DNA from: Actinomycetes bacterium | GTDB taxonomy: Bacteria; Actinomycetota; Actinomycetes; Nanopelagicales; Nanopelagicaceae | Length of the DNA stretch: 50,152 nt | NCBI GenBank assembly: GCA_025355805.1 | Contig: JANXYY010000070.1 | Coordinates: 1-50,152, forward strand | Direction of reading: 5' to 3' | Shown: positions 25,126 to 48,040 of the stretch, in pieces | Position numbering within the stretch: position 1 is the stretch's first letter | Layout of the letters: each line of letters starts with the position of its first letter | Translations under genes and position numbers: made by a program | The notes under the pieces: generated by a model | Database searches by the model: none | What the model saw: only the letters and a program-made list of their open reading frames with translations | What the model was told of the DNA's origin: nothing

Positions 25126-25258
25126 CAAATAGTGACCAAAGGCTTAGCAGAAAATTACAAACCCCTGCTTCGCGGACGCCTATTAGATATGGAGCAGTGC
25201 AAGTCGGGCAGAGCAACACTTGAAGAGTTCGCCGTCGTCCCAGAAGAGGCAGGTAGTC

Positions 25259-27328
25259 GTGGGCAGCATCCGAATTGGGATCGACACCGGGGGCACTTTC
25301 ACGGATGTGGTAGCTCTAGACGAAATCAGTGGACGAATTGTCACCACCAAGACTCCTTCGACTCCGAGCGATCCAGCCGATGGCTTCATGAACGGGATCG
25401 ACAAGGTCTTAAAGTTGATTGGGGCCGACTCGACGGAGATCATCTCGGTAAGCCATGGAACCACTGTGGCCACTAATCAACTCCTTGAAGAAAAGATCGA
25501 TGAACTTGGATTCATTACTACTGAAGGTTATGAATTCATTCTTGAAATTGCTAGGCAATCTGTCCCAGACGGCTATGGAAATTCATATTTTTGGGTTAAA
25601 CCACCACGCCTAGTCCCAGCGGATCTCGTGCGGACCGTAGGTGGTCGAATGAATTCGAGGGGAGAAGAAATACGGCCCTTTAACCGTGACGATGCAGTAG
25701 CGGCAGCGCGGTACTTGAAGCAACGTGGGATAAATACACTCGGAGTCTGTTTCCTGCACTCATACGCTAATCCCGCTCATGAATTGGCTATGCGCGAAGT
25801 TCTGCGAGTGGAACACCCCGATGCAGTTCTCTCAATTTCGAGCGAAGTTTTGCGCGAATATCGCGAATATGAACGTTCGATAACGACGTTGGTTGACGCA
25901 GCGGTAAAGCCACGGGTCGCTCGCTATATTGCCAATATCAAGTCTCGCCTCGATACCTTCACCGCCGACCTGATCCCGTTCTACGTTATGAAAAGCAATG
26001 GTGGCGTCCTATCGGCCGATGAGGTTGTGCATCAGCCGATCACCACAGTCCTGTCGGGCCCCGCCGCAGGCGCCTTAGGCGCCGCATTGATCGCGCAGCG
26101 AGCGGGTTTCGATCGAGTGCTCACCTGTGACGGCGGAGGTACTTCTACCGATGTGAGTGTCGTGATTAACGGCGAGCCGACCCTGACGACCGAAGGAAGC
26201 GTTGGTCGCTACCCAAGCAAAATACCGATGATCGATGTCGTAACGGTCGGAGCAGGCGGTGGCTCGATTGCGTGGATCTCACCAGAAGGAACTCTCAAAG
26301 TCGGACCTAAATCAGCTGGTGCAGACCCCGGGCCAATGTGTTATGGAAAAGGTGGCACCGCGCCAACTATTACTGACGCACATCTTGTGCTCGGACGGAT
26401 CCCACCACACTTACTCGGAGGTGAGATCCCACTTCAGTTGTCTGCGGCCGAGACCGGAATTGCGGACTTGGCTCAGCGAATTGGGCGAACGCTGGAAGAC
26501 TGCGCCACCGGAATTCTAGAAATCTCGGCTTGGAATCAAGCAAATGCACTTCGACAAATCACGGTTAAGCGCGGTCTAGATGTTCGAGATTTTTATCTAA
26601 CGACTTTTGGCGGGTCAGGATCGCTACTCCTTTGCCGACTGATCGATATCTTGAGTCTGGCAGGTGTGATCGTGCCCTTGAATCCAGGAAATCTTTCGGC
26701 CTTTGGTTTGCTCACCGTGGACGTGAAAAACGATTACGTCCAAACTTCCGTTGCCCAGCATGGAGACCTTGATCTAAATCTGGTGGAGCAATTATTTAGT
26801 GAACTTAGCCAGAAGGCAGCAATTGCACTGGATAAAGAAGGTTTTGCTCGCGCTTCTCATCAATATCGGCGGACGGCAGATCTTCGATATTTCGGTCAAG
26901 CCTACGAAGTTCGAGTTGATTGCCCATCCGGAGAAATCAATCTTGGGTGGGCAGCCCGAGTCGCAGAAAACTTTCACTCCGAACATGAACGTCTCTATGG
27001 ATACTGCTTCCGCGGAGATCCACGTCAACAGGTCGAGTGGGTTAACTTCCGAGTTTCTGGAATAGGACCAATTCGACGGCCCGAGGTCTTAGAAATGCTG
27101 GTGGGTGATGGCAACCATGAACGTGCTCGCTCTGGAGATCGCCAAATCTGGTTCGACGGACCGCGCATCACTACGCCAATTTATTCGCGAGCTTTGCTCG
27201 CGCCGGGCGACCAAATCCTCGGACCCGCAATTATCGAAGAGTTTGGTTCAACGATCCCGATCCATCCGGGATTCAAAGTTCGGATTGATGCATTTGGCAA
27301 TTTGATTGTCACCAAGGAGAGTGAGTGA
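25259..27328 (+). CDS. Hydantoinase/oxoprolinase family, A (ATP-binding, ASKHA-fold) subunit
   Basis: The N-terminus IRIGIDTGGTFTD is present, and a second phosphate-binding motif CDGGGTSTDVS lies mid-protein. I prefer GTG 25259, which has AGAAGAGG upstream, over the track's TTG 25220. The 3' end overlaps the next gene by 4 nt. Confidence 0.85.
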   Translation: MGSIRIGIDTGGTFTDVVALDEISGRIVTTKTPSTPSDPADGFMNGIDKVLKLIGADSTEIISVSHGTTVATNQLLEEKIDELGFITTEGYEFILEIARQSVPDGYGNSYFWVKPPRLVPADLVRTVGGRMNSRGEEIRPFNRDDAVAAARYLKQRGINTLGVCFLHSYANPAHELAMREVLRVEHPDAVLSISSEVLREYREYERSITTLVDAAVKPRVARYIANIKSRLDTFTADLIPFYVMKSNGGVLSADEVVHQPITTVLSGPAAGALGAALIAQRAGFDRVLTCDGGGTSTDVSVVINGEPTLTTEGSVGRYPSKIPMIDVVTVGAGGGSIAWISPEGTLKVGPKSAGADPGPMCYGKGGTAPTITDAHLVLGRIPPHLLGGEIPLQLSAAETGIADLAQRIGRTLEDCATGILEISAWNQANALRQITVKRGLDVRDFYLTTFGGSGSLLLCRLIDILSLAGVIVPLNPGNLSAFGLLTVDVKNDYVQTSVAQHGDLDLNLVEQLFSELSQKAAIALDKEGFARASHQYRRTADLRYFGQAYEVRVDCPSGEINLGWAARVAENFHSEHERLYGYCFRGDPRQQVEWVNFRVSGIGPIRRPEVLEMLVGDGNHERARSGDRQIWFDGPRITTPIYSRALLAPGDQILGPAIIEEFGSTIPIHPGFKVRIDAFGNLIVTKESE

Positions 27329-29166
27329 TGTCAATCGATGCCATTCTGGTTGAAATTGTTGAAGGGACGCTCGCTTCAGTTGAGATGGAAGTGGAAACGG
27401 CAATCGCTAGGACCTCCCGATCGCCAATGATTCGCGATGCGCACGATTTTCGCGCCGGTATCCATGATCGAAAATTGCGAAAACTGACGGGACGCTCTTA
27501 TTCGGCTCTAGTCCACCCAATCGTGAGGGATTACCCGCTTGAATCGATGCGTCAGGGAGATGTCTTTTTTCACAACGACGTCTACCAGTCTGAAGGCGGA
27601 ATAGGCCACTTGCCCGATCTTTGCGTGACGGTCCCCGTCTTTCACCTTGGCGAAGTCGTCGCATTCGTTCAGGCATTCGGCCACCACGACGATATCGGGG
27701 GCGCATGCCCTGGCTCGATGCCGTCCGGCGCCACGAGCGTCTTCGAAGAGGGTCTGATGGTGCCTCCGATTCGTCTTTGGGACCAAGGGATTCCAAACGA
27801 ATCGGCGCTTAAAATCATGACCAGAAATTCCCGGATGCCAGATTCGTTGGCAGCCGATCTTGATGCCGAATGTTCGGCTTGTTTGATGGGTGCGCAACGG
27901 TTGTCTGAATTATTTGACCGTTATGGTCGGGAAACAATTGAGAGTTGCTTTGATGCGATTCTGGATAAGACGACTGAAACTTATAAGCGAGAGATCCTAT
28001 CCAAGATCCCGGATGGCACTTTTGTTTGGGAAGATTACGCTGAACATGATGGCGTTGACGCACCGCGGTTGCACACCCAGCGCATTACTTTGACGAAGAC
28101 TCCGGAGAAAATCATTATCGACTTCACTGGAACCTCTCCTCAAGCGAAGGGCCCAATCAATCACTGTGGCGATTATGCCGATGGAAACTTTCTCAAAAAA
28201 TGGCTTGCACCGATTCTTCGTAATCTTGCTGACACTCCCGAACGAATGGCTGAGTTGGATGTAAATGAAGGCGTTGTTCCGCTCATCGAAATGATCTTTC
28301 CACCGAAAGGGACCTTACTTACCCCCATCTTCCCAGCTCCAACCAATGCCAGAACCTTCGTAATCTTGCGACTTCTCGGGGTTCTCGCGGGAGTCTTGGC
28401 AAAAGCCGTTGATGGCAAGATGCCGGCGGATCAAGAGACCATCCGTTACACGGGTGTTTATGGCGACGATTTAGCTGGTGACTCGTATCTGATGCGTGAA
28501 GTTTTGGGTGGTGGTTCTGGTGGACGCTATTACGCCGATGGCGAGGACACGATCCATGTGGTCCCGGATTCGCGAAACCTACCCACCGAATTTACTGAAT
28601 CGCGATTCCCATTCATTGTCGAGCGACTTGGACTTGCAATTGATTCGGGGGGTGCTGGACGTTACCGAGGTGGCCTTGGCTACGAAAAGCACATCCGAAT
28701 GCTGAAGGATGCAAATTTTATGAGTATCGCTGATCGTTCGATTCTCGCTTGTTGGGGATTGAAGGGTGGTAAAGCAGGAGCCTCTTTCTCGGTGACCATT
28801 GATGTCGGGGGCGCTAACGAACGCAACATCGATGCCCTAGCCGACGCTGCACCAGTGAAACAAGGGGAGATCATCCGAATCCGAACCACCGGTGGCGGAG
28901 GATGGGGAGACCCGCTGCTGCGGCCCTTTGCCGATGTCGAACGGGATCTTAGGTGGGGCAAAGTGTCTTTCGCCGGCGCCCAAACCGATTATGGGGTGAT
29001 CGCATCAGGAACCAAAGACGATCCACTGATCGACGTTACCGCCTCAATCGAACTGCGCAAGGAGTTATCTGCGCTCAGAACAGGGCTAGAACCATTTTTC
29101 GACCGCGGACCTGGTTACGCTCAACTTTCGGGCGGAAAACTATTTGCGGAGGTTGATTTCGTGTGA
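27325..29166 (+). CDS. Hydantoinase/oxoprolinase family, B subunit
   Basis: A 613-aa ORF with a typical HyuB N-terminus (DAILVEIVEGTLASVEMEVETAIARTSRSPMIRDAHDF), ...FHNDVY...GHLPD... and the C-terminal GGGGWGDP. Confidence 0.85.
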   Translation: MMSIDAILVEIVEGTLASVEMEVETAIARTSRSPMIRDAHDFRAGIHDRKLRKLTGRSYSALVHPIVRDYPLESMRQGDVFFHNDVYQSEGGIGHLPDLCVTVPVFHLGEVVAFVQAFGHHDDIGGACPGSMPSGATSVFEEGLMVPPIRLWDQGIPNESALKIMTRNSRMPDSLAADLDAECSACLMGAQRLSELFDRYGRETIESCFDAILDKTTETYKREILSKIPDGTFVWEDYAEHDGVDAPRLHTQRITLTKTPEKIIIDFTGTSPQAKGPINHCGDYADGNFLKKWLAPILRNLADTPERMAELDVNEGVVPLIEMIFPPKGTLLTPIFPAPTNARTFVILRLLGVLAGVLAKAVDGKMPADQETIRYTGVYGDDLAGDSYLMREVLGGGSGGRYYADGEDTIHVVPDSRNLPTEFTESRFPFIVERLGLAIDSGGAGRYRGGLGYEKHIRMLKDANFMSIADRSILACWGLKGGKAGASFSVTIDVGGANERNIDALADAAPVKQGEIIRIRTTGGGGWGDPLLRPFADVERDLRWGKVSFAGAQTDYGVIASGTKDDPLIDVTASIELRKELSALRTGLEPFFDRGPGYAQLSGGKLFAEVDFV

Positions 29167-30332
29167 CTAGCGGTCCGCTAGCCGGTGTCGTCGTAATCGA
29201 TTTATCACGCGCACTAGCTGGTCCACATGCGGCGATGATGCTCGGAGATATGGGCGCTCGCGTAATTAAAGTTGAGAATCCAGATGGCGGTGATGACACC
29301 CGCGGCTGGGGCCCACCTTTCGTAGGCCAGGCTCAGGCAATTGAGTCAACATATTTTCTATCGTGCAATCGCAACAAGGAATCGATCACTCTTGACTTGA
29401 AAGCAGAGAACGGCAAGACGATTCTCGAACGGTTAATTAAACAGGCGGATGTTCTCGTCGAAAATTTTAGGCCAGGAGTCATGGATCGCCTGGGCTTCGA
29501 CAATGAACATTTACACGAACTGAATCCGAGGCTGGTAATACTTTCGATTTCGGGATTCGGTCATGATGGTCCTGAGGGTGGCCGTGCTGGTTACGACCAA
29601 ATAGCTCAGGGCGAAGCTGGCCTGATGTCTCTAACGGGTTCCTCGCCGGATGAACCAACTCGCGTAGGTGTTCCGATTGGCGATCTACTGGCCGGCATGT
29701 ACGGCGCGTATGGTGCGGTCGCGGCACTCCACGAACGAAATAGCACTGGTATTGGCCGAGTCGTGCGAACTTCACTGCTTGCCTCGATCGTGGGCGTTCA
29801 CGCGTTTCAAGGAACTCGCTACACGGTTGCTGGAGAGATTCCCAAAGCCAGCGGCAACCACCATCCATCTATCGTTCCTTATGGACTTTTTCATTGCAGT
29901 GATGGATTTTTGCAAATCGCGATCGGCTCAGAAAATTTGTGGCGTTTATTTGCACCCGCCTTTGGAGTTGACAAACCTGTCTACGCAACGAACGCGTTAC
30001 GCGTCGGCGCCCGCATTGAATTAGTTGGTGAAATCGAAGCGGCCTTCGCCACCTGGAGTGTCGTGAATCTACTCGAGAGGCTTACAAACTTAGGAATTCC
30101 ATCTGGTGAGGTCCGCTCGCTCGATCGAGTTTATGAATGGGATCAGACCAAATCGCAAGGGCTCTTAATGGATGTTGAGCATTCATCACTCGGCCTAATT
30201 ACGATTCCAGGACCGCCGCTTCGCATCGAAGGAGTTGGATCTATCGGTCATCGTCCAGACCCTCTAGCTCCACCTCGATTGGGCGAACATACGGATTCAA
30301 TTTTGTCGTGGCTTGATTCCCTTGACGCTTAA
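29163..30332 (+). CDS. Type III (CaiB/BaiF/Frc family) CoA-transferase
   Basis: A 389-aa ORF with N-terminal VVIDLSRALAGPHAAMMLGDMGARVIKVENP...GDDTRGWGPPF and the ENFRPG motif. The conserved Asp context is GVPIGDLLAGMYGA. Its GTG start overlaps the hyuB stop (GTGA). Confidence 0.85.
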   Translation: MTSGPLAGVVVIDLSRALAGPHAAMMLGDMGARVIKVENPDGGDDTRGWGPPFVGQAQAIESTYFLSCNRNKESITLDLKAENGKTILERLIKQADVLVENFRPGVMDRLGFDNEHLHELNPRLVILSISGFGHDGPEGGRAGYDQIAQGEAGLMSLTGSSPDEPTRVGVPIGDLLAGMYGAYGAVAALHERNSTGIGRVVRTSLLASIVGVHAFQGTRYTVAGEIPKASGNHHPSIVPYGLFHCSDGFLQIAIGSENLWRLFAPAFGVDKPVYATNALRVGARIELVGEIEAAFATWSVVNLLERLTNLGIPSGEVRSLDRVYEWDQTKSQGLLMDVEHSSLGLITIPGPPLRIEGVGSIGHRPDPLAPPRLGEHTDSILSWLDSLDA

Positions 30333-31838
30333 GTGAGCAGCGCTTCGATGACGAAACGATTGAGTGCCGAAGAGTTAATCATGATGGTGCTTGATCCAGG
30401 TTCATTTATTTCTTGGGATCACAATATTGATGATCCAGCCAACGCCTCCATGCAATACCTTGCAGAACTAAGCCAAGCACGTGCCAAATCTGGAACCACT
30501 GAAGCGATTCTCACTGGGGAGGGTTTCATCAAGGGTCGCAAGGTGGCAATCGTGATCGGCGAGTTCGCGTTTCTGGCTGGCTCAATTGGGGTGGGTGCAG
30601 CGACTCGCATAATCGAGGCATTCGAACGGGCTACTCGTGAACGCTTGCCGCTTCTAGCCGCACCGGTCTCTAGTGGTACGAGAATGCAAGAGGGAACGCT
30701 CGCTTTCATGCAGATGGTGGGAATCACTGGAGCTGTCGTGGCTCATAAGGCAGCAGGCTTGCCTTACTTGGTTTATTTACGGCATCCAACAACTGGTGGG
30801 GTCCTTGCCTCGTGGGGTTCGCTTGGGCATGTAACCGTCGCCGAACCTGGAGCACTAATTGGCTTCCTTGGCCCACGTGTTTACCAGGCGCTTCATGGTC
30901 AACCATTCCCCAAAAATGTACAGACCTCCGAAAATCTTTTCGCACACGGTCTTTTGGACGCCGTTCTTGCACCTGAACGTTTGGCTGAGATCACCTCAAG
31001 GGCTCTGACGGTTCTGGCTCCTGATCACAACACTTTTAGGACTGTGCCAACAATCGAAAAGGAACCACTTGCAGAGCACACCGCCTGGGAATCCATCACT
31101 CTCACTCGGGCGGCAAATCGGCCAGGAGTTCGTTCACTTCTGCGCTACGGCGCTAATAATGTTTTGCGACTACACGGAACCGGCGAAGGGGAGAGTCAAC
31201 CAACTTTGCTATTGGCTTTGGCACGCTTTGGCAACGCCCCATGCATCCTGCTTGCCCAAGATCGGGTTAACGGCGATAGACCTTTGGGACCGGCTGGTTT
31301 ACGTGAAGCTCGACGTGGGATGAAATTGGCATCCGAGTTAAAAATACCTTTGGTCACTGTGATTGACACTCCTGGCGCCTCGCTCTCTAAGGAGTCGGAG
31401 GAAGGCGGCTTAGCCGGCGAGATTGCGCGTTCGTTGGCTGACCAGATCGCCCTCGATGCACCCACACTGTGTGTCTTGTTGGGCCAAGGCGGCGGTGGCG
31501 GAGCCTTGGCCATTCTGCCGGCCGATCGGGTGATTGCAGCTGAACACGCATGGCTTTCACCGCTGCCTCCCGAAGGTGCCTCGATAATCGTTCATCGGAC
31601 CACCGATTTCGCGCCCCAAATGGCAGCTGAGCAGGGGGTGCGAGCGCGAGACCTCCTTGCAGCGGGAATCGTCGATCGCATTGTCGCCGAGCGACCAGAT
31701 TCCGCTCGGGAACCCGAGGAATTTGCTAAGCGTCTGTCGCAAATACTTGAGCATGAGTTGATCGCCCTAATCGAGGCTGATCCGATCCAGCGCCTGGCCA
31801 AACGTTTAGCCAGATATCGGAATCTAGGTCGGAATTAA
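30333..31838 (+). CDS. Fused carboxyltransferase (AccD-like beta half plus AccA-like alpha half)
   Basis: A 501-aa ORF. The N-terminal half aligns by eye to AccD (FAFLAGSIGVGAA..., SSGTRMQEG, PTTGGVLASW, AEPGALIGFLGPRV) but lacks the AccD Cys4 zinc ribbon. The C-terminal half aligns to AccA (RPLGPAGLREARRGMKLASELKIPLVTVIDTPGA..., GQGGGGGALA, LSPLPPEGASII). The start could instead be ATG 30348. Confidence 0.8.
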   Translation: MSSASMTKRLSAEELIMMVLDPGSFISWDHNIDDPANASMQYLAELSQARAKSGTTEAILTGEGFIKGRKVAIVIGEFAFLAGSIGVGAATRIIEAFERATRERLPLLAAPVSSGTRMQEGTLAFMQMVGITGAVVAHKAAGLPYLVYLRHPTTGGVLASWGSLGHVTVAEPGALIGFLGPRVYQALHGQPFPKNVQTSENLFAHGLLDAVLAPERLAEITSRALTVLAPDHNTFRTVPTIEKEPLAEHTAWESITLTRAANRPGVRSLLRYGANNVLRLHGTGEGESQPTLLLALARFGNAPCILLAQDRVNGDRPLGPAGLREARRGMKLASELKIPLVTVIDTPGASLSKESEEGGLAGEIARSLADQIALDAPTLCVLLGQGGGGGALAILPADRVIAAEHAWLSPLPPEGASIIVHRTTDFAPQMAAEQGVRARDLLAAGIVDRIVAERPDSAREPEEFAKRLSQILEHELIALIEADPIQRLAKRLARYRNLGRN

Positions 31839-31945
31839 GCGAGCGCTGGTTTTCGATTGCGGGTGGCATTTTGCGCCCGTGATTCCATTGACTCTGGGCA
31901 AACTCTGCCCGCTTGTTCACGGCACTGTTAGGGCAGGCTAGACAA

Positions 31946-32896
31946 GTGCGACTTCTAATTGCTCTAGGCGGGAACGCGATGACCGCACCCGACGGCGGCG
32001 CCAGACCGATTGATCAAGAGCGAGCGATAACCACTGCCATGGAACATGTGGCAGATTTGATCGCCGAGGGCTATCAAGTTCTCTTGACTCACGGTAATGG
32101 ACCTCAGGTCGGAAATCTGCTCGTTAAAAATGAAATTGCGGCGAGTGTGGTCCCGCCAGTACCCCTCGATTGGTGCGGGGCACAGACGCAAGGAACGATT
32201 GCCCTCTTGATAATGAATGCACTTGATGGTGCGCTCGCCGCTCGAGGACTCAAAGGTCGTTCTGCTGGTTTAGTTTCGCGCACACTGATCGATCCAGCTG
32301 ATCCTGGATTTGCAAACCCGAGCAAGCCAATTGGGCGCTATCTGCCAAAGTTGGAAGCCGAGAAGTTGGCGATCCATGGTCAGATTTGGGAAGACCGTGG
32401 TGAACGCGGTTGGCGCCGAGTTGTTGCCTCTCCTCAGCCTCTGGAAATTTTAGAAGTTGACGCGATCAAACAACTTATGGCCGGGGGATTTCTGGTCATC
32501 GCCGCCGGTGGCGGTGGAATCCCGGTGGTACGCGATGCGGCAGGCACCCTCAAAGGCGTCGAAGCGGTTCTCGATAAAGACCTAACGGCGGCGTTGCTGG
32601 CTCGCCAGGTTGAAGCGGACCTCTTGATTATTGCAACGGACGTACCAAACGCAGTTGTCGGTTGGGGTACGCCGCAGGCTCGCGCGATCGGTCGGATCTC
32701 GGTCGTCGAATTGCGAGCGCTAGCGGCAGAAGGGTATTTCGCAAGCGGGAGCATGGGTCCAAAGGTCGAGGCGGCTTGTCGGTTTGCCGAAGGCGGTGGC
32801 GTTAGTGTGGTGACCTCGCTAGATCAAATTCGAAACGCGGTTACGAGTGTCGAAATCGCTCGATTCGATGTTGGAACCATCGTTGTTGCTAGTTAG
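31946..32896 (+). CDS. arcC: Carbamate kinase
   Basis: Carbamate kinase motifs are present along the whole length: LIALGGNAM, THGNGPQVGN, KPIGRY, GERGWRRVVASPQP, GGGGIPVV, KGVEAVLDKD and FASGSMGPKVEAA. I prefer GTG 31946 over the track's TTG 31913 on N-terminal length. Confidence 0.88.
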   Translation: MRLLIALGGNAMTAPDGGARPIDQERAITTAMEHVADLIAEGYQVLLTHGNGPQVGNLLVKNEIAASVVPPVPLDWCGAQTQGTIALLIMNALDGALAARGLKGRSAGLVSRTLIDPADPGFANPSKPIGRYLPKLEAEKLAIHGQIWEDRGERGWRRVVASPQPLEILEVDAIKQLMAGGFLVIAAGGGGIPVVRDAAGTLKGVEAVLDKDLTAALLARQVEADLLIIATDVPNAVVGWGTPQARAIGRISVVELRALAAEGYFASGSMGPKVEAACRFAEGGGVSVVTSLDQIRNAVTSVEIARFDVGTIVVAS

Positions 32897-32941
32897 ATTT
32901 AGTTAAATGAAGTTGCCATCCCGTAATCAGAAGGAGTAGTC

Positions 32942-34060
32942 GTGTCAGAGAAGCCGCAGGCTATTGAAGTCCGCAAAGTCGCGATCAAGCATGTAAGCGA
33001 TGCAAGCGGATTAGAAGAGCTCATCGATTCCGGGGTCATCGAAGCAGATCGAGTCGTTGCGATTATCGGCAAAACGGAGGGCAATGGCGGCGTGAACGAT
33101 TACACGCGAATCATTGCTGATCGAGTGTTTCGCGAAGTATTGGTGACTAAAGGAAGCCGTTCAGTCGCGGATGTTAAGCAAATTCCGATTGTTTGGTCGG
33201 GCGGAACCGATGGGGTTATTAGTCCGCATGCAACGATCTTCGCGACGGTATCGCCAGAGAAAACTATTAAGACTGACGAGCCTCGCGTCTCGGTTGGATT
33301 CGCCATGAGTGAGGCAATCCTGCCCGAAGAAATTGGCTATATGGGCATGGTAAACAAGGTTGCCGCAGCCGTAACGATCGCCATGGCGCGCGCTGGAATT
33401 ACTGACCCTGCCGATGTGCACTATGTACAGACAAAGACACCGCTACTCACAATCCATACGATTCTTGACGCACATAGTCGAGGCATGAAGGTATGGACCG
33501 AGAACACCCACGAGTCCATGGACCTCTCGAATGGGACAACGGGTCTTGGGGTTGCGCTCGCACTTGGTGAAGTTAAGAGTGTTAGCGACAGCGACATCAT
33601 GCACAATCGAGGCATCTTCTCCGCGGTCGCATCTTGCTCTTCTGGAGTGGAATTAGACCAGGCGCAGGTTGTGGTAGTCGGAAACGTGCGAGGTATCGGT
33701 GGGCGTTATCGAATCGGACATTCGGTGATGAAAGATGCACTTGATCAAGACGGAATTTGGGCCGCGATCAGAAGTGCTGGATTGGAATTACCAGAGCGTC
33801 CGCATCACACTGACCTCAAAGGACGACTCGTCAACGTCTTTCTCAAATGTGAGGTATCACCAGATGGAATCGTAAGAGGGCGACGCAATGCGATGCTCGA
33901 TGATTCAGACGTGCACTGGCACCGTCAGATTAAGGCGGCGGTTGGCGGAGTTGCGGCGGCGGTAACCGGCGATCCTGCGGTATTCGTCTCGGTGTCAGCA
34001 GTTCACCAAGGCCCGGCCGGCGGTGGCCCAGTGGCAGCGATTGTTGATTTGGGAGAGTGA
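32942..34060 (+). CDS. Ring-opening (cyclic amide) amidohydrolase, cyanuric acid hydrolase/barbiturase (AtzD/TrzD) family
   Basis: A 372-aa ORF that is colinear by eye with AtzD. Matching blocks are [69 protein letters not shown] and [12 protein letters not shown]. The GTG start at 32942 is preceded by GAAGGAG. Confidence 0.85.
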
Positions 34061-34755
34061 GGATTGCCGAACCTCTTTTTCCAAATGACGACGGGTCAGC
34101 AAATCCGCAACTAATCGCCGCGATGAGCGGCGGAGATCGGTATGAAATTGTCCGTGCCCTCGCCAAGGCTCGGGTGTTCATCGCGCTCCTGGCCAAACTC
34201 GAAAGCCCAGCGATCGAGACGCCTGGGGCAAAGATTCGGAGCGCTGACGCAGGGATCGAGCAAGAGAGCGAAGTGTCCCTGGCCTGGCTCGTCGATGGAT
34301 CAGTCAAGGCATTGCCAATATTCACCAGCATTGCAGCACTCAACGCTTGGAATGTGGTCGCGCGACCGCTTGGAGTCGAGGCCCAACGCGCTGCCGTGGT
34401 GGCCCTGGCAGATGGCGAAATCGCAGTTATGGATCCAGGCGGCAAACACCCCATCGAGATCGGGCCAAGCGCGCTCCGCTCGCTCGCACTGGGCTACGAA
34501 TATGTGCCCATCTCTGTTGACCCCGAAGTAAGGCGAGCTATCGAAGAAGCGCTCGAGGGGAGCCTGGACGGTGGGCAAAAGATTGATTTCTCCGTCTTTG
34601 GCGATTTTCCAGATGACTTCGTAATTACCCTGGCTGGACCAATCCCAGCACCAGATCATGCTCAGCTGAGCGCATTGGCGCGCCATCTGGCCGAGGACGC
34701 CCGTATTCGCCTGCGACTGGAGGCTGGGTTGCAGGTCAAGATCGCTACGCGATAG
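34057..34755 (+). CDS. SseB-family protein (function unknown)
   Basis: A 232-aa acidic protein with an SseB-like core ([15 protein letters not shown]...). Its GTG start overlaps the amidohydrolase stop (GTGA). The family assignment is by recollection and is not verified. Confidence 0.55.
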
Positions 34756-34880: not shown

Positions 34881-34907
34881 CGGATCATAAAAAGATCCGT
34901 CGTTTTT
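34881..34907 (+). terminator. Terminator-like hairpin with U-run inside the infC leader (possible attenuator)
   Basis: The stem is CGGATC (34881-34886) paired with GATCCG (34894-34899), with loop ATAAAAA. It is followed by TCGTTTTTG. It sits about 75 nt upstream of the infC start. Confidence 0.3.
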
Positions 34908-34980
34908 GTGGGCTCCTCGCATGTGACGCGGGGAGTTTTCTTTTACCCCGGGGATGGCACCCGATGAAGAAGGAGCAAGC

Positions 34981-40620: not shown

Positions 40621-40660
40621 CATAAATATACATTCGTGACTAAATAGATGTATATTTATG
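40621..40660. promoter_or_regulatory. Candidate ArgR operator (tandem ARG-box region) overlapping a candidate argC promoter
   Basis: A perfect 13-bp inverted repeat: CATAAATATACAT (40621-40633) and ATGTATATTTATG (40648-40660), separated by 14 nt. It lies in a strongly AT-rich 45-nt gap directly upstream of and overlapping the argC start. TATACA-N18-TATATT fits a -35/-10 pair. Confidence 0.5.
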
Positions 40661-41692
40661 CGTATGACAGTGCGGGCAGCGGTTGCCGGGGCGAGCGGCT
40701 ATGCGGGGGGCGAGTTACTCCGCATCCTAAGCGGCCATCCAGATTTTGAAGTCGGTGCCATCACGGCCGCACAGAGCGCAGGAACGCGGCTGGGCGATGT
40801 TCATCCGCAGTTGTGGTCCCTTCGCGATCGATGCATCGAGGTAACTTCGGTGGCTAACTTGGAAGACGCGGACGTAGTTTTCCTGGCCTTGCCTCATGGT
40901 GAATCCGCAAAGTTGGTACGCGAACTCGAAGGTGTGCGATTAATCGTCGATTTGGGCGCCGATTTTCGATTAGGCAGTCCGGAAAGTTGGCAGCAGTTTT
41001 ATGGTGGTGATTATTCGGGGCAATGGACCTACGGACTACCTGAGTTAGCGGGTGCTCGCGCGAAGATCGCTAAAAGTTCCCGAATCGCTAATCCGGGTTG
41101 TTATGCCACGAGTGCCATTCTTGGTTTGGCTCCGCTGCTTGTCGACGATTTGATCGAGCCGAAAGACATCGTCATAGTGGCAGCATCCGGCACCTCTGGA
41201 GCCGGGCGCGCGATCAAATCACAACTCATGGGCAGCGAAGTTATGAATTCGATGTCCACTTACAAAGTCGGGGGAGTGCATCAGCACACACCAGAAATCG
41301 AGGAGATGTTGGGACGAGTGGCCGGGACACAAATCGGCATTTCATTTACGCCACTCTTAGCCCCAATGCCCAGAGGGATTATCGCGACATTAACTGCCAC
41401 GGTTAAGGGCGCTAAATCCGCCGATATTCAACGTTCGCTCAGCAATGCTTACGCGGATGAATCTTTTGTTCACTTTTTGCCCGACGGGATCTGGCCAATT
41501 ACCGCCTCGACGTTCGGAAGCAATTCGGTTCAGATGCAAGCGGTGGTCGACGAACGCGCCGGGCGTGCAATTATCACCGTGGTGCTCGACAACTTAGTTA
41601 AGGGCGCAGCAGGTCAGGCGATTCAAAATGCAAATATTGCCTTGGGCTTTTTGGAGACAGCGGGATTATCAGCCGAGGGAATAGCGCCATGA
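40658..41692 (+). CDS. argC: N-acetyl-gamma-glutamyl-phosphate reductase
   Basis: A 344-aa ORF with AVAGASGYAGGELLR and the active-site NPGCYAT. The start could be ATG 40658, ATG 40664 or GTG 40670. Confidence 0.92.
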   Translation: MRMTVRAAVAGASGYAGGELLRILSGHPDFEVGAITAAQSAGTRLGDVHPQLWSLRDRCIEVTSVANLEDADVVFLALPHGESAKLVRELEGVRLIVDLGADFRLGSPESWQQFYGGDYSGQWTYGLPELAGARAKIAKSSRIANPGCYATSAILGLAPLLVDDLIEPKDIVIVAASGTSGAGRAIKSQLMGSEVMNSMSTYKVGGVHQHTPEIEEMLGRVAGTQIGISFTPLLAPMPRGIIATLTATVKGAKSADIQRSLSNAYADESFVHFLPDGIWPITASTFGSNSVQMQAVVDERAGRAIITVVLDNLVKGAAGQAIQNANIALGFLETAGLSAEGIAP

Positions 41693-42840
41693 GCGTCACT
41701 TTTCCGAAAGGTTTTCTGGCAGCTGGGATTTCAGCTGGACTAAAATCAAGCGGCGCTAAAGATTTAGCGCTCGTAGTGAACAGCGGACCATTAAAAAGTG
41801 CTGCGGCCCGCTTCACAAGCAATCGAGTCAAAGCAGCCCCAGTGCTCTGGAGCGAGCAAGTGCTCAAGGACGGGCGAGTTGATGCCGTCATTCTCAATTC
41901 GGGTGGTGCCAACGCGTGTACCGGGAACGAAGGATTTCTCGACGTTCATCGCACCGCCGAATTTGTCTCCGATTTGCTTGGCGTAAGCGCGACCGACATT
42001 GCTGTCTGCTCAACTGGACTCATCGGTGTTCGCCTTCCGATGGATCGCATCATTCATGGAGCGAGCCTGGCGCACGGCGAGCTCAGTCGGACCGGGGGTC
42101 TTGATGCAGCTCTCGCGATCATGACAACTGACACGGTTTCCAAAACGTTCGAAATTGAAAGTGATGGAGTTCGAGTGGCTGGAATGGTGAAAGGTGCTGG
42201 GATGTTGGCTCCTTCGCTGGCGACAATGTTGGCCGTTATCACCACCGACGCCATGGTGGACCCAAAAGTTCTAGATGGAATCCTCGGGGAAGTGGTTGAA
42301 CACACTTTCAATCGGATTGATTCCGATGGTTGCACCTCAACCAATGACACGGTTCTACTTCTGGCTTCTGGTGCTAGTGCTATTGAGATGCCCGAACGTC
42401 AACTCCGAGAGATGGTTTCTACCGTCTGTCAAAATCTTGCACGTCAACTCGTGACGGATGCCGAAGGGGCAAGCAAAGAAGTAGAGATTACGGTAATAAA
42501 TGCAGCGTCTGAGTCAGATGCCCTAGAAGTCGGTCGAGTGTGCGCTCGTAACAATCTCTTGAAATGCGCAATTCACGGAGAGGACCCAAATTGGGGTCGA
42601 GTTCTAGCGGCAGTCGGAACTACGAGTGCGGTTTTCGAACCCCAGCAGATCGATGTTTCAATCAACGGCATCACGCTTTGTCGGGGTGGCTCGATTGGCG
42701 ATGACCGGATCCTTGTGGATATGACGGGCCGGATAGTCGAAATCATTATCGATCTGAAGGCCGGAACGAGTTCTGCAACGATCTGGACGAATGATTTGAC
42801 GGCGGAGTACGTGCATGAGAATTCTGAGTATTCGTCATGA
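41689..42840 (+). CDS. argJ: Bifunctional ornithine acetyltransferase / N-acetylglutamate synthase
   Basis: A 383-aa ORF with an autoproteolytic-site context (GAGMLAPSLATML, T nucleophile) and the C-terminal LTAEYVHENSEYSS. Confidence 0.92.
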   Translation: MSVTFPKGFLAAGISAGLKSSGAKDLALVVNSGPLKSAAARFTSNRVKAAPVLWSEQVLKDGRVDAVILNSGGANACTGNEGFLDVHRTAEFVSDLLGVSATDIAVCSTGLIGVRLPMDRIIHGASLAHGELSRTGGLDAALAIMTTDTVSKTFEIESDGVRVAGMVKGAGMLAPSLATMLAVITTDAMVDPKVLDGILGEVVEHTFNRIDSDGCTSTNDTVLLLASGASAIEMPERQLREMVSTVCQNLARQLVTDAEGASKEVEITVINAASESDALEVGRVCARNNLLKCAIHGEDPNWGRVLAAVGTTSAVFEPQQIDVSINGITLCRGGSIGDDRILVDMTGRIVEIIIDLKAGTSSATIWTNDLTAEYVHENSEYSS

Positions 42841-43658
42841 GCCTTGAGCGATTCCTTGGGCGAACGCTCGTCGTTAAATATGGTGGAAATGCGATGATCG
42901 ATTCTGCGCTGAAGGAGAGCTTCGCCTCTGATGTGGTGGCGCTGGCTCGAAACGGAATTCATATAGTTGTAGTTCACGGCGGTGGACCACAGATTAATGA
43001 AATGCTCATGAAACTATCGATCGAAGTCGTATTTGCTGGTGGCTTCCGAGTTACGGATGCACAAACTATGTCGGTAGTTGAGATGGTATTGAGTGGTGTC
43101 GTGCAGCCCGAGATCGTTGGTCTGATCAATCACGCCGGCGGGAATGCGGTGGGGCTTTCAGGAATCGATGGAAATCTTCTGGTTTGTGAACGACGCGACG
43201 TGATGGTCGAAGGTAAGCCTACGAATATTGGGTTAGTGGGTGATGTTGTACGGGTAAATCCGGGGATCCTTCAAAACCTACTAAATGCTTCATACGTTCC
43301 AGTAGTTTCCTCTTTTGGTAACGACAAGTCAGGTCGGACCCTAAATGTGAACGCCGATACCGCAGCCGGATCCATCGCTGGCGCGTTGACGGCTGATGCA
43401 CTTGTTATGTTGACGGATGTTGCCGGTCTGTACGCCGATTGGCCCGCTACTTCAACGGTTATTCCTCAATTGAGCGCCGAGGCCCTGCGCGAACTTCTGC
43501 CCTCTCTAACCAGCGGCATGGTTCCGAAGATGGAAGGCTGTTTGAGAGCGCTCGACTTAGGTGCTAAAGAAGTGCTGGTGATTGATGGACGCGTTCATCA
43601 CGGGTTGTTTGCCGCGCTCGAGGCATCGGATTTCCTCGGTACTCGGGTCCTGCCATGA
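42837..43658 (+). CDS. argB: Acetylglutamate kinase
   Basis: A 273-aa amino-acid-kinase fold with VVKYGGNAM, VVVHGGGPQI and NVNADTAAG. Confidence 0.92.
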   Translation: MSLERFLGRTLVVKYGGNAMIDSALKESFASDVVALARNGIHIVVVHGGGPQINEMLMKLSIEVVFAGGFRVTDAQTMSVVEMVLSGVVQPEIVGLINHAGGNAVGLSGIDGNLLVCERRDVMVEGKPTNIGLVGDVVRVNPGILQNLLNASYVPVVSSFGNDKSGRTLNVNADTAAGSIAGALTADALVMLTDVAGLYADWPATSTVIPQLSAEALRELLPSLTSGMVPKMEGCLRALDLGAKEVLVIDGRVHHGLFAALEASDFLGTRVLP

Positions 43659-44842
43659 TTGACGAGAGCGGCCAGACGGACGCGCTCCTTGCGCACTGGC
43701 GTGAGTTGATGCAATCCAATTACGGAGTGCCACGGATTGCTCTAGTGAGCGGCTCGGGTGCCGAAGTGGTAGATGCTGAAGGTCGTAAATACACCGATTT
43801 TCTCGGTGGAATCGCCACAAATGTCCTGGGGCACGCAAACCCAGAAATAGTGGCCGCAGTTTCTACGCAGATTCGACAATTGGGGCACGTGAGCAATCTT
43901 TACGCCCACCCGAAAGCACTGTCGCTGGCCGCCAAGCTTCGACGATTATCAGGTGACGATTCTGCTCGAATCTTTTTTTGTAACTCAGGAGCCGAAGCAA
44001 ACGAAGCTGCATTTAAACTTTCTAGGCTCACTGGCCGCACCAAAGTGATCGCCATGCACGGCGCCTTTCATGGAAGGACAATGGGCGCACTCGCCCTCAC
44101 TGGGCAACCAAGCAAAGCGGATCCATTCCGCCCTCTGCCGACGGGAGTAGTTCATGTCCCGTTTGGGGATTTGGCCGCAGTTGCCGAGTTGATCGACGAC
44201 GAAACTGCAATGGTGATGGTGGAACCAATCCAGGGCGAAGCCGGCGTGGTTACTCCACCTCCTGGATATCTAGTCGGACTTCGCGAATTAACAATGAGAT
44301 TCGGGGTGCTCCTAGCGTTGGATGAAGTCCAAAGTGGGATGGGACGAACCGGAACTTGGTTCGCCCATCAGGCGGACGGAATTTCACCGGACATAATCAC
44401 CATGGCAAAAGGTCTTGGCGGCGGATTACCGCTCGGAGCGATGTTGGCACTTGGTTCGGCGTCTGGATTTTTTCAACCCGGTTCACATGGTTCAACCTTC
44501 GGTGGGAATCCAGTTGCCTGCGCCGCAGGGTTGGCCACAATCGAGGTGATCGAACGTGACGGAATGCTGGAAAACAACGCGTCTCTCGGGAAATATCTGG
44601 CAACCGAACTGAGTCACCTTAATCAAGTCGAGGAGGTGCGGGGCCGTGGCCTGCTCATCGGAATCGGTTTTAGGACCGAGATCGCCTACCAAGTTCAACT
44701 ACTGCTTGAAGAGCGAGGGTTCTTGTCAAATGCGGCTAGTGCTTACACGCTTCGATTGGCACCTCCCTATGTCATCACTGAAGCCGATATTGACCGCTTT
44801 GTCGCGACGTTGGCAGAAATCCTAAAGGAGACGACGCTATGA
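43655..44842 (+). CDS. argD: Acetylornithine aminotransferase
   Basis: A 395-aa class III aminotransferase with NSGAEANEAA, DEVQSGMGRTG and PDIITMAKGLGGG (PLP Lys). Confidence 0.92.
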   Translation: MIDESGQTDALLAHWRELMQSNYGVPRIALVSGSGAEVVDAEGRKYTDFLGGIATNVLGHANPEIVAAVSTQIRQLGHVSNLYAHPKALSLAAKLRRLSGDDSARIFFCNSGAEANEAAFKLSRLTGRTKVIAMHGAFHGRTMGALALTGQPSKADPFRPLPTGVVHVPFGDLAAVAELIDDETAMVMVEPIQGEAGVVTPPPGYLVGLRELTMRFGVLLALDEVQSGMGRTGTWFAHQADGISPDIITMAKGLGGGLPLGAMLALGSASGFFQPGSHGSTFGGNPVACAAGLATIEVIERDGMLENNASLGKYLATELSHLNQVEEVRGRGLLIGIGFRTEIAYQVQLLLEERGFLSNAASAYTLRLAPPYVITEADIDRFVATLAEILKETTL

Positions 44843-45414
44843 CTGCGCTCCCAAGAACATCGCCTCGGACCAAAGCGGCACGCCGAGAATTAATCATGGA
44901 TTTATTGGTCTCCGGCGAAATTCGATCACAGGTCGAATTGACCCAAATCTTGATAAAAAGAGGTTTCTTGGTAACTCAGGCAACCGTCAGTCGCGATTTA
45001 GAAGATCTTGGTGCCACCAAAATCAGGAATGAAACTGGCTCGCTGACTTACGGGATTTCGCCCAGTCGCCCACACCTGGAAGACCCGATCAATCGGGTTA
45101 TTCGAGTTGCCCAAGACCTTCTCATCTCGGCGGAGGCCAGCGCAAACTTGGTGGTGCTGCGCACACCTCCCGGCGGTGCACACCTGTTGGCGAGTGCACT
45201 GGATCAAGCAATTACAACATTTGCCCTGCCAGAATTGCTTGGCACGGTTGCCGGAGATGACACTGTTCTAGTGATAACTCGAAAGCCCGAGGGTGGAGAA
45301 GCGGCTGCCGCGCAAATTCTTCGACTTTCTGAAGGTTTACTCAAAATAACTTCGGCTGACCAAAGACAAAAGAGCGAAATTCATGGAAAACAAGAAGAAG
45401 GGAAACGCTCGTGA
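44839..45414 (+). CDS. argR: Arginine repressor
   Basis: A 191-aa ORF with the N-terminal wHTH ([29 protein letters not shown]) and the C-terminal oligomerisation/arginine-binding motif [11 protein letters not shown]. An extra charged tail of about 25 aa is present. Confidence 0.9.
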
Positions 45415-46622
45415 AAGAGCGCATTGTTCTCGCATACAGTGGCGGTTTGGATACGTCAGTCGCAATCGGATGGATCGGCAAGGAGACCGGAGCAGAGGTT
45501 ATCGCTGTTGCCGTTGACGTCGGTCAAAACGGCGAGGACCTCGAGGTAATTCGAAAGCGAGCTCTTGCTTGCGGTGCTATTGAGGCTGAAGTTGCCGATG
45601 CACGCCATGAGTTTGCCAATGAATATTGCTTGCCTGCCCTGAAAGCGAATGCGCTTTACATGGATCGATATCCACTTGTTTCGGCCATCTCGCGCCCGTT
45701 AATTGTCAAGCACCTGGTGGCGGCTGCTAGGAAGCATGGAGCTTCGCGAGTTGCGCATGGCTGCACTGGTAAAGGTAATGACCAAGTGCGGTTCGAAGTG
45801 GGTACGGGTGCGCTAGCGCCAGATCTCACGTCTTATGCGCCGGTACGCGATTCAGGCATGACCAGGGACCGCGCGATTGCTTTTGCCGAAAAGGCAGGCC
45901 TTCCGATTGATATCACGAAGAAGAATCCATTTTCGATTGATCAGAACGTTTGGGGTCGCGCCGTAGAGACGGGCTTCCTTGAAGACATCTGGAACGCACC
46001 AACTGAAAACGTATATGCCTATACCCAAGACCCGTCAATTGTTCGGGATCCTGACGAAGTTGTAATCACTTTCAAATCAGGCATTCCGATAGCCATTGAT
46101 GGCAAACCAGTAACGATGCTGGAAGCAATTCAGCAGATGAACCAACGAGCCGGAGCCCAGGGCATTGGCCGCATCGATATGGTCGAAGATCGCCTCGTTG
46201 GAATTAAAAGTCGTGAGGTATATGAAGCACCAGGGGCTTTAACGCTGATTACTGCGCATCAAGAACTGGAAAATGTCTGCGTGGAGCGTGAATTAGCGCG
46301 GTTCAAACGACAGGCTGAACAGCGTTGGGGTGAACTTGTTTACGACGGACTCTGGTTCTCTCCGCTCAAGAGCGCACTCGACACTTTTATGAACGAGGCC
46401 AACGAATTGGTCTCCGGCGAGATCCGGATGACATTGCATGCTGGACGCGCGATTGTTACTGGTCGCCGCAGTGAAACTTCGCTATACGACTTCGATCTTG
46501 CCACTTACGACGAAGGCGACACTTACGACCAGTCACTTGCAAAAGGTTTCGTAGATATTTGGGGAATGCCAAGTCGAATCGCAGCAGCTCGCGATCTACG
46601 CGTGGGCAAGTCGATGAAGTAA
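45411..46622 (+). CDS. argG: Argininosuccinate synthase
   Basis: A 403-aa ORF with [23 protein letters not shown] and [17 protein letters not shown]. Confidence 0.95.
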
Positions 46623-48040
46623 TGACTGACATGCGACTTTGGGGTGGGCGGTTCGCCGGCCTTCCCGCCGATGCGATGGCTGCCCTGTCGGCGAGTGTTC
46701 ATTTCGATTGGCGACTGGCCAAATATGACCTACTCGCGTCCAAGGCCCATGCTCGAACATTACGCAATGCCAAACTGCTTGACGACCAAGAGTTAACTCG
46801 CATCCTTGATGCTCTCGAAGAACTCAGGATCGAAGTAGCTAACGGAGTTTTTCATCCTCTGATCAGTGATGAGGACGTGCACACCGCACTCGAGCGCGGT
46901 CTGGTGGAAAAATTGGGAGAACTCGGCGGCGCACTACGAGCCGGCAGGTCGCGCAACGATCAGGTGGCGACTGATTTACGGCTCTATTTGCGGGATGAAG
47001 TGCGGTCACTTGCAAGTTTGCTCCTTGGTCTGCAGGAGGCACTGCTTGCGCAAGCGAGTCAACATGCTGATTCCATCGCGCCAGGCTTTACGCATTTACA
47101 GCATGCGCAGCCAGTCTCATTTGGCCATGAACTCGCCAAACATATTCACGCCTTCGCACGAGATTTGTCGCGACTGCGCGATTGGGATAAACGCACGGAT
47201 TTCTCACCGCTTGGAGCGGGGGCGCTATCCGGATCCTCTCTCATCGATGACCCGCGGGGGACGGCTCGTGAACTTGGCTTTAGTGGAGCGATTGCGAATT
47301 CAATTGACGCCGTCAGTGATCGCGATTTCGTCGCAGAACTACTGTTCATCACATCCCTCATCGGAATCCATCTTTCGCGTATCGGTGAAGAATTTACGCT
47401 TTGGGCTTCAAGAGAATTCGGGTGGGTTACGTTAGCCGATTCGTATTCAACTGGTTCCTCGATCATGCCTCAGAAGAAGAACCCTGACGTCGCGGAATTG
47501 GCGCGTGGTAAAAGTGGTCGATTGGTCGGACATCTCACCGGATTTCTGGTGACCTTAAAAGGTTTGCCCTTTGCTTATAACCGAGATTTGCAAGAGGACA
47601 AAGAACCGATCTTCGATTCTCTTGATACCTTGCAGATCCTCCTACCCGCTGTTACCGGCATGATTGAAACCAGCCAATTTGATCGGGGAAGAATGGCTCG
47701 ATCTGCGCCTGAAGGCTTTGCTCTAGCAACCGAGATCGCCGACTGGCTTGTCCGTAAAGGCATGCCGTTCCGCAACGCCCATGAGGTTGCGGGGGAGTGC
47801 GTTCGATTCTGTGAAGCCAATGGAATCGAACTAGATCAATGCAGCGATGCGGAGCTCTCGTCGATAAACCCTCTCCTGACTGTCGAAGTCCGCGATGTGC
47901 TGACCGCAGAAGGTGCGGTTGCCTCTCGAACTGCTTTTGGTGGCACCGCACCAGTTCGCGTTCGCGAGCAGTTGGCCGACTTGGCGCGGGCCATGGGAAG
48001 CGATCGGGCTTGGGCTAATTCCGTCTCATCCGCTCACTAG
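46622..48040 (+). CDS. argH: Argininosuccinate lyase
   Basis: I moved the start to ATG 46622 (TAATG overlap with the argG stop), giving [11 protein letters not shown]. The fumarate-lyase signature [12 protein letters not shown] is present. The track ORF start at 46559 lies inside argG. Confidence 0.93.

Follow-up and report, generated by a model that had tools for sequence, protein, structure and literature searches.

A conserved actinobacterial CoA-transferase and fused AccD/AccA-type carboxyltransferase pair: a candidate module for turning malonate into acetyl-CoA

We examined a 50,152-nucleotide stretch of DNA (hereafter the window; contig JANXYY010000070.1 of assembly GCA_025355805.1) from a member of the Nanopelagicaceae, represented by a 1.83-Mb, 87%-complete actinobacterial genome bin. 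Two adjoining genes in the window encode a type III coenzyme A (CoA) transferase, P0001, and a carboxyltransferase (CT), P0002, in which an AccD-like and an AccA-like half are fused. The pair is a conserved actinobacterial module, and on balance we favor the reading that it converts malonate to malonyl-CoA and then to acetyl-CoA and CO2, most likely without a dedicated biotin carrier. We found no description of this module at the gene level in the literature searched. If this reading is true, the module would be a third gene-level solution for malonate catabolism beside Mdc/Mad and MatAB, acting on free CoA. It would also be a carbon exit for oxidative pyrimidine degradation, a pathway whose final genes are not described in the literature searched. 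Additionally, it would offer a candidate function for the orphan AccD3/AccDA family, including Rv0904c of Mycobacterium tuberculosis, whose role was left open in earlier work (PMC4347857, PMC5311964). The database name "acetyl-CoA carboxylase subunit" probably gives both the wrong direction and the wrong pathway.

The transferase and carboxyltransferase genes

The CoA-transferase gene lies at 29163-30332 on the plus strand and encodes a 389-aa protein of the CaiB/Frc type. Residues 6-377 of P0001 cover the full PF02515 profile of Pfam (positions 1-366 of 366, E 8.5e-113), and its Asp174 shares an alignment column with the Asp of YfdE, SUGCT and 4ed9, a column that we take to be catalytic. P0001 reaches none of the NCBIfam equivalog cut-offs for named type III transferases. 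Succinate--glutarate CoA-transferase is its best model (331 bits, cut-off 750), and the corresponding scores and cut-offs are 245/522 for YfdE, 212/504 for Frc and 120/413 for CaiB. We propose that P0001 is a malonate:acyl-CoA CoA-transferase.

The GTG start of P0001 overlaps the stop codon of the preceding gene, hyuB, in a GTGA at 29163-29166. At the other end, as the initial annotation had it, the TAA stop of the transferase gene (30330-30332) directly abuts a GTG (30333) that opens a 501-aa frame running to 31838. The true start of P0002 is more probably ATG 30348, 15 nt past the P0001 stop, because homologs that are 83-94% identical (496-498 aa, with the N-termini MTKRL, MAERL or MTRRL) start at the equivalent position. 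The two genes are tightly linked under either start codon.

Combining PF01039 and PF03255 in one chain of ~490-500 aa, P0002 (30333-31838, plus strand) is, judged by its sequence, a fused CT of the AccD3/AccDA type, and we propose that it acts as a malonyl-CoA decarboxylase. Its AccD-like half, residues 9-219 (30357-30989), matches positions 56-270 of the 285 in TIGR00515 (AccD). Because this match starts only at profile position 56, the Cys4 zinc-ribbon segment is missing; residues 1-60 are free of Cys, and the sole Cys residues of the protein are at 304 and 380. The AccA-like half, residues 242-500 (31056-31832), matches positions 48-315 of the 319 in PRK05724 (AccA). The profile matches and Cys positions agree with the earlier description of a single 501-aa chain in which a ribbon-less AccD-like half precedes an AccA-like half. 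We found the motifs SSGTRMQEG (113-121), HPTTGGVLASWG (151-162) and AEPGALIGFLGPRV (170-183) in the AccD-like half, and VIDTPGA (343-349), EEGGLAGEIARS (356-367), LLGQGGGGGALAI (382-394) and SPLPPEGAS (409-417) in the AccA-like half. The glycine-rich loops are kept in both halves, with HPTTGGVLASWG and LLGQGGGGGALAI aligning with PTTGGVSASF and GEGGSGGALAI of solved CTs. Constraint is about equal across the protein, with 56 invariant columns in the AccD-like half and 51 in the AccA-like half among 40 homologs.

P0002 scores below both NCBIfam cut-offs for the acetyl-CoA carboxylase subunits (TIGR00515, 162.5 bits vs 317.45; PRK05724, 154.4 vs 357). We rejected an assignment as MdcD/MdcE, for which the scores are 30.6 bits against a cut-off of 278 (TIGR03133) and 22.2 against 237 (TIGR03134), and no MdcC was found in the five genomes searched. 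Among solved proteins, AccD (E 1e-36) and AccA (E 4e-30) subunits are nearest to the respective halves, and MdcD is distant (E 1.5e-5). An AlphaFold2 model of P0002 (pLDDT 88) has the two-domain CT fold, with TM scores of 0.72-0.76 to PccB, 12S and AccD5, and a fold search with this model returned only the generic two-domain CT fold.

The P0002 family is large and actinobacterial. In a manual tally of a 400-genome sample of the class Actinomycetes, in which related genomes are not independent and counts are descriptive only, the CT is present in 132 genomes other than the window's own, about one third. P0002 is 58.5% identical over ~495 aa to proteins of Mycobacterium and Mycolicibacterium named "carboxyl transferase subunits beta/alpha", a figure that refers to these proteins and not to Rv0904c itself. 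In two genomes of one genus the CT match lies beside barbiturase and comes in two pieces (G065:C4:159353-161140 and G176:C11:50562-52477), ~325 bp apart within one open frame in G065 and ~500 bp apart in separate frames in G176. These could be a form with a long linker or a split form.

Conservation of the pair

We gathered 80 genome loci of close CT homologs, called their genes with a GC3-based open reading frame (ORF) caller, and located orthologs of the window genes in each. A CoA-transferase ortholog (59-81% identical) adjoins the CT in 44 of the 80 loci, nearly always directly upstream and on the same strand. HyuA is co-located with the CT in 15 loci, and HyuB, carbamate kinase and the AtzD-like barbiturase gene in 14 each. 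A MatC-like carrier (PF07158 MatC_N, 200 bits) accompanies the CT in 11 loci, with GntR/FCD regulators alongside. In a maximum-likelihood tree of the CTs, 29 of the 33 transferase-less loci form one Nocardioidaceae clade (SH-aLRT 97-98), and 44 of the remaining 48 rows, which include the window's own, are transferase-linked. The MatC and Hyu/barbiturase contexts interleave on this tree: Knoellia remsis has MatC, whereas its congeners K. flava and K. pratensis carry the Hyu/barbiturase set. The two contexts are combined in a single locus, L077.

In the 29 Nocardioidaceae loci (L022, L029, L031 and 26 more) the CT is a stand-alone gene that comes after genes for an ECF-type sigma factor and an M1-peptidase-like protein, in the vicinity of a branched-chain 2-oxoacid dehydrogenase operon. 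A transferase, if there is any, is encoded elsewhere.

Closer to the window, two genomes of the same family (G007 and G015) carry the whole block at the same place, between fabG-fabI-sixA and infC. In a genome of the same genus (G001) the block is split over contigs (L094, G001:C10:1-9000; L095, G001:C55), with an MFS transporter gene directly upstream of arcC-barbiturase; the transferase and CT were both not found in this genome, which is 94% complete and has contig breaks inside the block. A genome of ~3 Mb (L100, G125:C15) has the transferase-CT pair directly upstream of infC, which is also the neighbor in the window's family, but the other four genes are missing from this locus.

Genomic contexts and malonate

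The MatC and barbiturase contexts of the pair are independent of each other, and both point to malonate. Downstream of P0002 in the window, the product of 32942-34060 (plus strand) is an amidohydrolase of the AtzD/TrzD family that matches PDB 5hwe, "Barbiturase", end to end with 635 bits, against 233-306 bits for cyanuric acid hydrolases. We rejected a cyanuric acid hydrolase identity, which 5hwe outscores, though the NCBIfam cyanuric acid hydrolase model is above its cut-off. From these matches the gene is a true barbiturase ortholog, whose product would be ureidomalonate. Between it and P0002 lies an arcC-type carbamate kinase gene (31913-32896, plus strand; NF009007, 300 bits vs a cut-off of 266).

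Barbiturase orthologs that are at least 69% identical occur in 99 of the 400 sampled genomes, which is far from the "rare enzyme" of older literature (PMC4051656). We found the CT in 71 of these 99 barbiturase-positive genomes vs 61 of the 301 barbiturase-negative ones. The distance between the two genes is at most 3 kb in 30 genomes, a number that rises to 40 for a limit of 20 kb. Barbiturase is absent from 5 of the 10 MatC-linked genomes, which argues that the common substrate of the module is an imported dicarboxylate and not a ureido compound. The initial annotation had proposed a transferase/decarboxylase cycle on free CoA that would fit malonate or ureidomalonate. The conserved pair and the MatC/GntR and barbiturase contexts strengthen the malonate part of that proposal, whereas ureidomalonate as the direct substrate is disfavored by the barbiturase-free genomes. 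No alternative decarboxylase came to light: the window's genome (G000) and four MatC-linked genomes gave no match to MdcC (TIGR03130) or to PF05292, the malonyl-CoA decarboxylase (MCD) fold, although control genomes went unmatched in the PF05292 search too. PF05292 is also not among the Pfam matches of P0002.

Other genes of the same genome fit an oxidative uracil pathway. On one strand of C111:14710-27053 (L102:5711-18054) we observe a PucR regulator, a RutG/uracil-type permease, a three-subunit Mo-hydroxylase with CoxG, and a CN-hydrolase. Divergently, on the opposite strand, are AllH, FdrA and YlbE-like genes, homologs of oxamate carbamoyltransferase subunits. In other genomes such genes are joined to the cluster itself. 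MoL-CoxG-CN-hydrolase lies directly upstream of hyuAB-transferase-CT...arcC-barbiturase in L016, CoxG and the CN-hydrolase are upstream of hyuA in the same cluster in L030, and a CN-hydrolase is upstream of hyuA at the edge of L101. Nocardioides speluncae (L044) has FeS-FAD-permease-PucR and then, divergently, FdrA-YlbE-transferase-CT-HyuA-HyuB. The oxidative-uracil gene set looks complete in the window's genome. Together with barbiturase and carbamate kinase, the C111 genes suggest a pathway that regains ATP via carbamoyl phosphate and handles ureidomalonate like oxalurate.

Proposed mechanism

In the first proposed step, the type III CoA-transferase would charge malonate with CoA taken from another acyl-CoA, which could equally well be acetyl-CoA or succinyl-CoA; with acetyl-CoA the catalytic cycle would be closed. 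The fused CT would then strip the free carboxyl of malonyl-CoA to yield acetyl-CoA and CO2. Like MdcD-MdcE acting on malonyl thioesters, it would most likely need no dedicated biotin carrier. In the organism of the window, oxidative uracil breakdown would supply the malonate. The C111 Mo-hydroxylase would convert uracil to barbiturate, and barbiturase would convert barbiturate to ureidomalonate. The ureido group may then be removed by the AllFGH-like carbamoyltransferase and/or the CN-hydrolase of C111, perhaps, by analogy with oxalurate, through phosphorolysis to carbamoyl phosphate. The product would be malonamate or malonate, to be passed on as malonyl-CoA to acetyl-CoA and CO2, and carbamate kinase would harvest the carbamoyl phosphate as ATP. 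The sequences directly show the gene identities, the kept motifs, the conserved linkage and the pathway context; we infer every step after barbiturase. In other actinobacteria the module would be fed by a MatC-type carrier under the control of a GntR/FCD regulator.

Biotin partners and accessory distribution

The window contains no gene for a biotin carboxyl carrier protein (BCCP), a biotin carboxylase (BC) or an acyl carrier protein (ACP), as noted at the outset. This holds for the window only. The initial annotation had suggested a search of the genome for BCCP, and outside the window this search turned up two BC-BCCP proteins as well as a biotinyl protein of 77 aa that stands alone. Matches to Biotin_lipoyl in this genome occur solely on contigs C179, C127, C154, C39 and C54, and C141 carries the single PP-binding match. 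Further CTs of the PccB/AccD6 type are encoded on contigs C154, C141, C127 and C37; those on C154 and C127 stand beside BC-BCCP proteins of 588 and 625 aa with the biotinylation motif AMKME, and the AccD6-like CT on C141 adjoins the ACP gene. The fused CT is not, then, the organism's only AccA/AccD equivalent, a possibility that the initial annotation had raised along with an essential role in acetyl-CoA carboxylase. The latter does not hold either. Among 18 further genomes in the family, the fused CT was found in only 2, which makes it an accessory gene.

The 77-aa protein, with the motif ESMKME, is encoded on the minus strand at C39:6376-6606 (L009:1492-1725). We rejected it as an obligate partner of the CT, since the CT-positive genomes G021 and G029 lack it while relatives without the CT carry it. 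The family tallies of both this protein and the CT take in the unpublished genome G024, but no conclusion depends on that genome alone. Its gene adjoins genes for an anti-sigma-like HxxxCxxC protein and a sigma factor (sigH/rshA-like), an arrangement that we take to resemble mycobacterial TB7.3/rshA/sigH.

Across the 80 homologous loci, a BC or BCCP gene lies within 10 kb of the CT in only one. We compared these loci with a fused sister family, 33-37% identical, in type II polyketide clusters of Streptomyces-like genomes (G327, G163, G365, G121). There, in each of the 4 loci, the CT is followed by a small BCCP-sized ORF and then by a biotin carboxylase gene; in one locus (L103) the small ORF matches a biotinyl domain. 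The neighborhood method can therefore detect such partners where they exist. Because this sister family is both fused and ribbon-less, fusion and ribbon loss alone are not proof of biotin independence. MdcD-MdcE decarboxylates malonyl-CoA without biotin at a kcat of 2.3 per s (PMC5534430). Altogether, biotin independence of P0002 is plausible, and we rank biotin-free decarboxylation somewhat above a biotin-dependent reaction.

Evidence against the proposed reaction and alternative explanations

Several observations weigh against a biotin-free malonyl-CoA decarboxylase. Hidden Markov model (HMM) scores place P0002 far nearer to AccD/AccA than to MdcD/MdcE, the sister family is clearly BC/BCCP-linked, and the genome does encode BC-BCCP proteins and the 77-aa biotinyl protein. 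The AccA-like half is the carboxybiotin-binding part in true CTs. In P0002 it keeps DTPGA, the EEGG..IARS stretch, the GQGGGGGALA loop and SPLPPEGAS under a constraint equal to that on the AccD-like half, which fits a second-substrate site that is still in place. MdcE differs in this respect, having a strongly diverged AccA-like half (PMC5534430). The mycobacterial and Nocardioidaceae members of the CT family stand alone, with no CoA-transferase beside them, and the searchable literature holds no biochemistry on any family member. The substrate of the MatC-family carrier is inferred from the family name only. HyuAB is translationally coupled to P0001 and conserved with the cluster, yet the inferred pathway has no HyuAB step. 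The PF05292 search, moreover, had no positive control.

The alternative to which these points lend most weight is that the malonate/malonyl-CoA route is right and the CT is truly biotin-dependent, passing the carboxyl to a carrier encoded elsewhere. Candidate carriers are the AccBC-type proteins on C127 and C154 and the 77-aa protein on C39, with carboxybiotin then decaying or feeding another carboxylase in a transcarboxylase-like manner. In its favor, the AccA-like core is retained in full and strongly constrained, as are both oxyanion-loop motifs, and the HMM likeness, the sister family and the encoded carriers all lean the same way. We nevertheless consider this alternative unlikely. BC or BCCP genes are almost never near the CT, the small biotinyl protein does not strictly co-occur with it, and a sink for carboxybiotin is not evident. 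In addition, M. tuberculosis AccD3 pulled down no partner in a screen with AccA, AccD and AccE proteins, binding none of the proteins tested, AccA subunits included (PMC4347857).

The module could instead act on another beta-carboxy thioester, such as one made from methylmalonate (from thymine via 5-methylbarbiturate), other 2-substituted malonates, or acids of the glutaconate/glutarate type. CT-fold enzymes also decarboxylate methylmalonyl-CoA and glutaconyl-CoA, the oxidative pyrimidine pathway also takes thymine, and the best family match of P0001 is to a succinate--glutarate CoA-transferase. That match is far under its cut-off, however, glutaryl-CoA dehydrogenase and mutase genes are not recurrent among the neighbors, and the MatC and barbiturase contexts both suggest malonate, which leaves a different acid quite improbable. 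Slightly less probable again is that the CT acts on a nitrogen-containing C3 thioester from the transferase, a "ureidomalonase" step at the level of the CoA ester. The ureido pocket of the AccA-like half would here hold ureidomalonyl-CoA or malonamoyl-CoA by its urea or amide end, and cleavage would give acetyl-CoA (or malonyl-CoA) and an N-carboxy or urea fragment. If true, the CT fold would gain a new type of reaction, and the six-gene cluster its missing "ureidomalonase". The thioester would resemble the carboxybiotin/acetyl-CoA reaction intermediate of CTs, the AccA-like half is kept, and the six-gene core cluster has no obvious ureidomalonase. Nearly identical CT orthologs accompany MatC carriers in barbiturase-free genomes, though, and the CN-hydrolase and AllFGH-like genes are at hand for ureido or amide removal. 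Finally, the database names "acetyl-CoA carboxylase beta/alpha subunit" and the AccD/AccA similarity would suit an ordinary acetyl-CoA carboxylase CT for fatty-acid synthesis that lies beside a CoA-transferase by chance. We ruled out this reading as highly improbable, given the other CTs of the genome with their BC-BCCP or ACP partners and the presence of the gene in only 2 of 18 family genomes; the CT is, moreover, embedded in catabolic clusters.

Comparison with known systems

The logic of such a module is already known from the Mdc system, from the Frc/Oxc oxalate cycle and from enzyme assays of malonate fermenters. In Mdc of Klebsiella, Acinetobacter and Pseudomonas, the transferase MdcA swaps acetyl for malonyl on the thiol carrier MdcC, and the AccD/AccA-fold pair MdcD-MdcE decarboxylates the malonyl thioester and restores the acetyl thioester; MdcD-MdcE also takes malonyl-CoA (PMC5534430). 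The actinobacterial module would share this logic but would use free CoA, whereas Mdc uses a dedicated ACP with a special prosthetic group. Its transferase is of type III, not of the MdcA type, and the halves of P0002 are fused and nearer to AccD/AccA. The rhizobial matABC/matR system similarly combines a MatC-type carrier and a GntR-family regulator with malonate activation and malonyl-CoA decarboxylase, and yields acetyl-CoA. There activation is by the ATP-dependent synthetase MatB and decarboxylation by an MCD-fold enzyme (PF05292), whereas we propose CoA transfer and a CT-fold protein. The oxalate cycle of formyl-CoA transferase and oxalyl-CoA decarboxylase (Frc/Oxc) and YfdE also pair a type III CoA-transferase with a decarboxylase whose thioester product can donate CoA in the next round. 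The decarboxylase is a thiamine enzyme there and a crotonase-fold CT here, and the equivalog cut-offs of Frc and YfdE are unmet by P0001.

Among carboxylases, AccD and AccA of E. coli and S. aureus are the closest solved relatives of each half, and P0002 keeps both of their catalytic motif sets. It differs from them in being a single ribbon-less chain that is under both cut-offs, without linked BC/BCCP, in catabolic context and dispensable in relatives. The fused CTs of type II polyketide clusters share the fused AccD/AccA architecture in actinomycetes and have BC/BCCP neighbors, unlike the P0002 family. AccD3 (Rv0904c) and corynebacterial AccDA have the same architecture and length as P0002. 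In contrast to the window, the mycobacterial genes are solitary: the 10 kb around them contain no CoA-transferase gene in L098 and L099. M. tuberculosis AccD3 was described as an outlier with <22% similarity to other AccDs (PMC4347857), and deletion of AccD3 in M. smegmatis gave no lipid phenotype, its function said to await "further study" (PMC5311964). The C. diphtheriae homolog of AccD3, DIP0787, is 49% identical and named accDA, and Rv0904c and DIP0787 are each clustered with an enoyl-CoA hydratase gene (Rv0905 and DIP0789, respectively) (PMC5501465).

Livieri et al. (PMC6491548) remark in passing that malonyl-CoA decarboxylases occur among the group-IV CT domains, naming "MatA" of S. coelicolor and SACE_3856, a statement that we were unable to confirm. 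When we sought a MatB-linked fused CT in Streptomyces-like genomes, we found only the polyketide-cluster CTs beside BC/BCCP. The source cited for that statement concerns Rhizobium MatA, which we take to have a different fold.

Gene neighborhood

The pair is part of a tight row of plus-strand genes that runs from hyuA to an SseB-like gene (25220-34755). HyuA (25220-27328) and hyuB (27325-29166) encode proteins of the ATP-dependent hydantoinase/oxoprolinase family (Pfam Hydantoinase_A/B) that score under the caprolactamase cut-offs. One idea is that HyuAB carries out ATP-dependent hydrolysis of malonamate, ureidomalonate or urea. At the other end of the row, the SseB-like gene (34057-34755, plus strand) overlaps the barbiturase stop. 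Its position is conserved only within the window's own family, and it is probably outside the module.

Further downstream is an arginine operon (40658-48040, argC-argJ-argB-argD-argR-argG-argH). An ornithine carbamoyltransferase gene is missing between argD (43655-44842) and argR (44839-45414), the usual actinobacterial site of argF. Between the SseB-like gene and infC (34954) we observe two terminator-like hairpins in 34881-34938. One of them, at 34910-34938 on the plus strand, has an 11-bp stem and a T tract in a consensus scan and separates the block from infC. The hairpins may be terminators of the operon or part of the infC leader.

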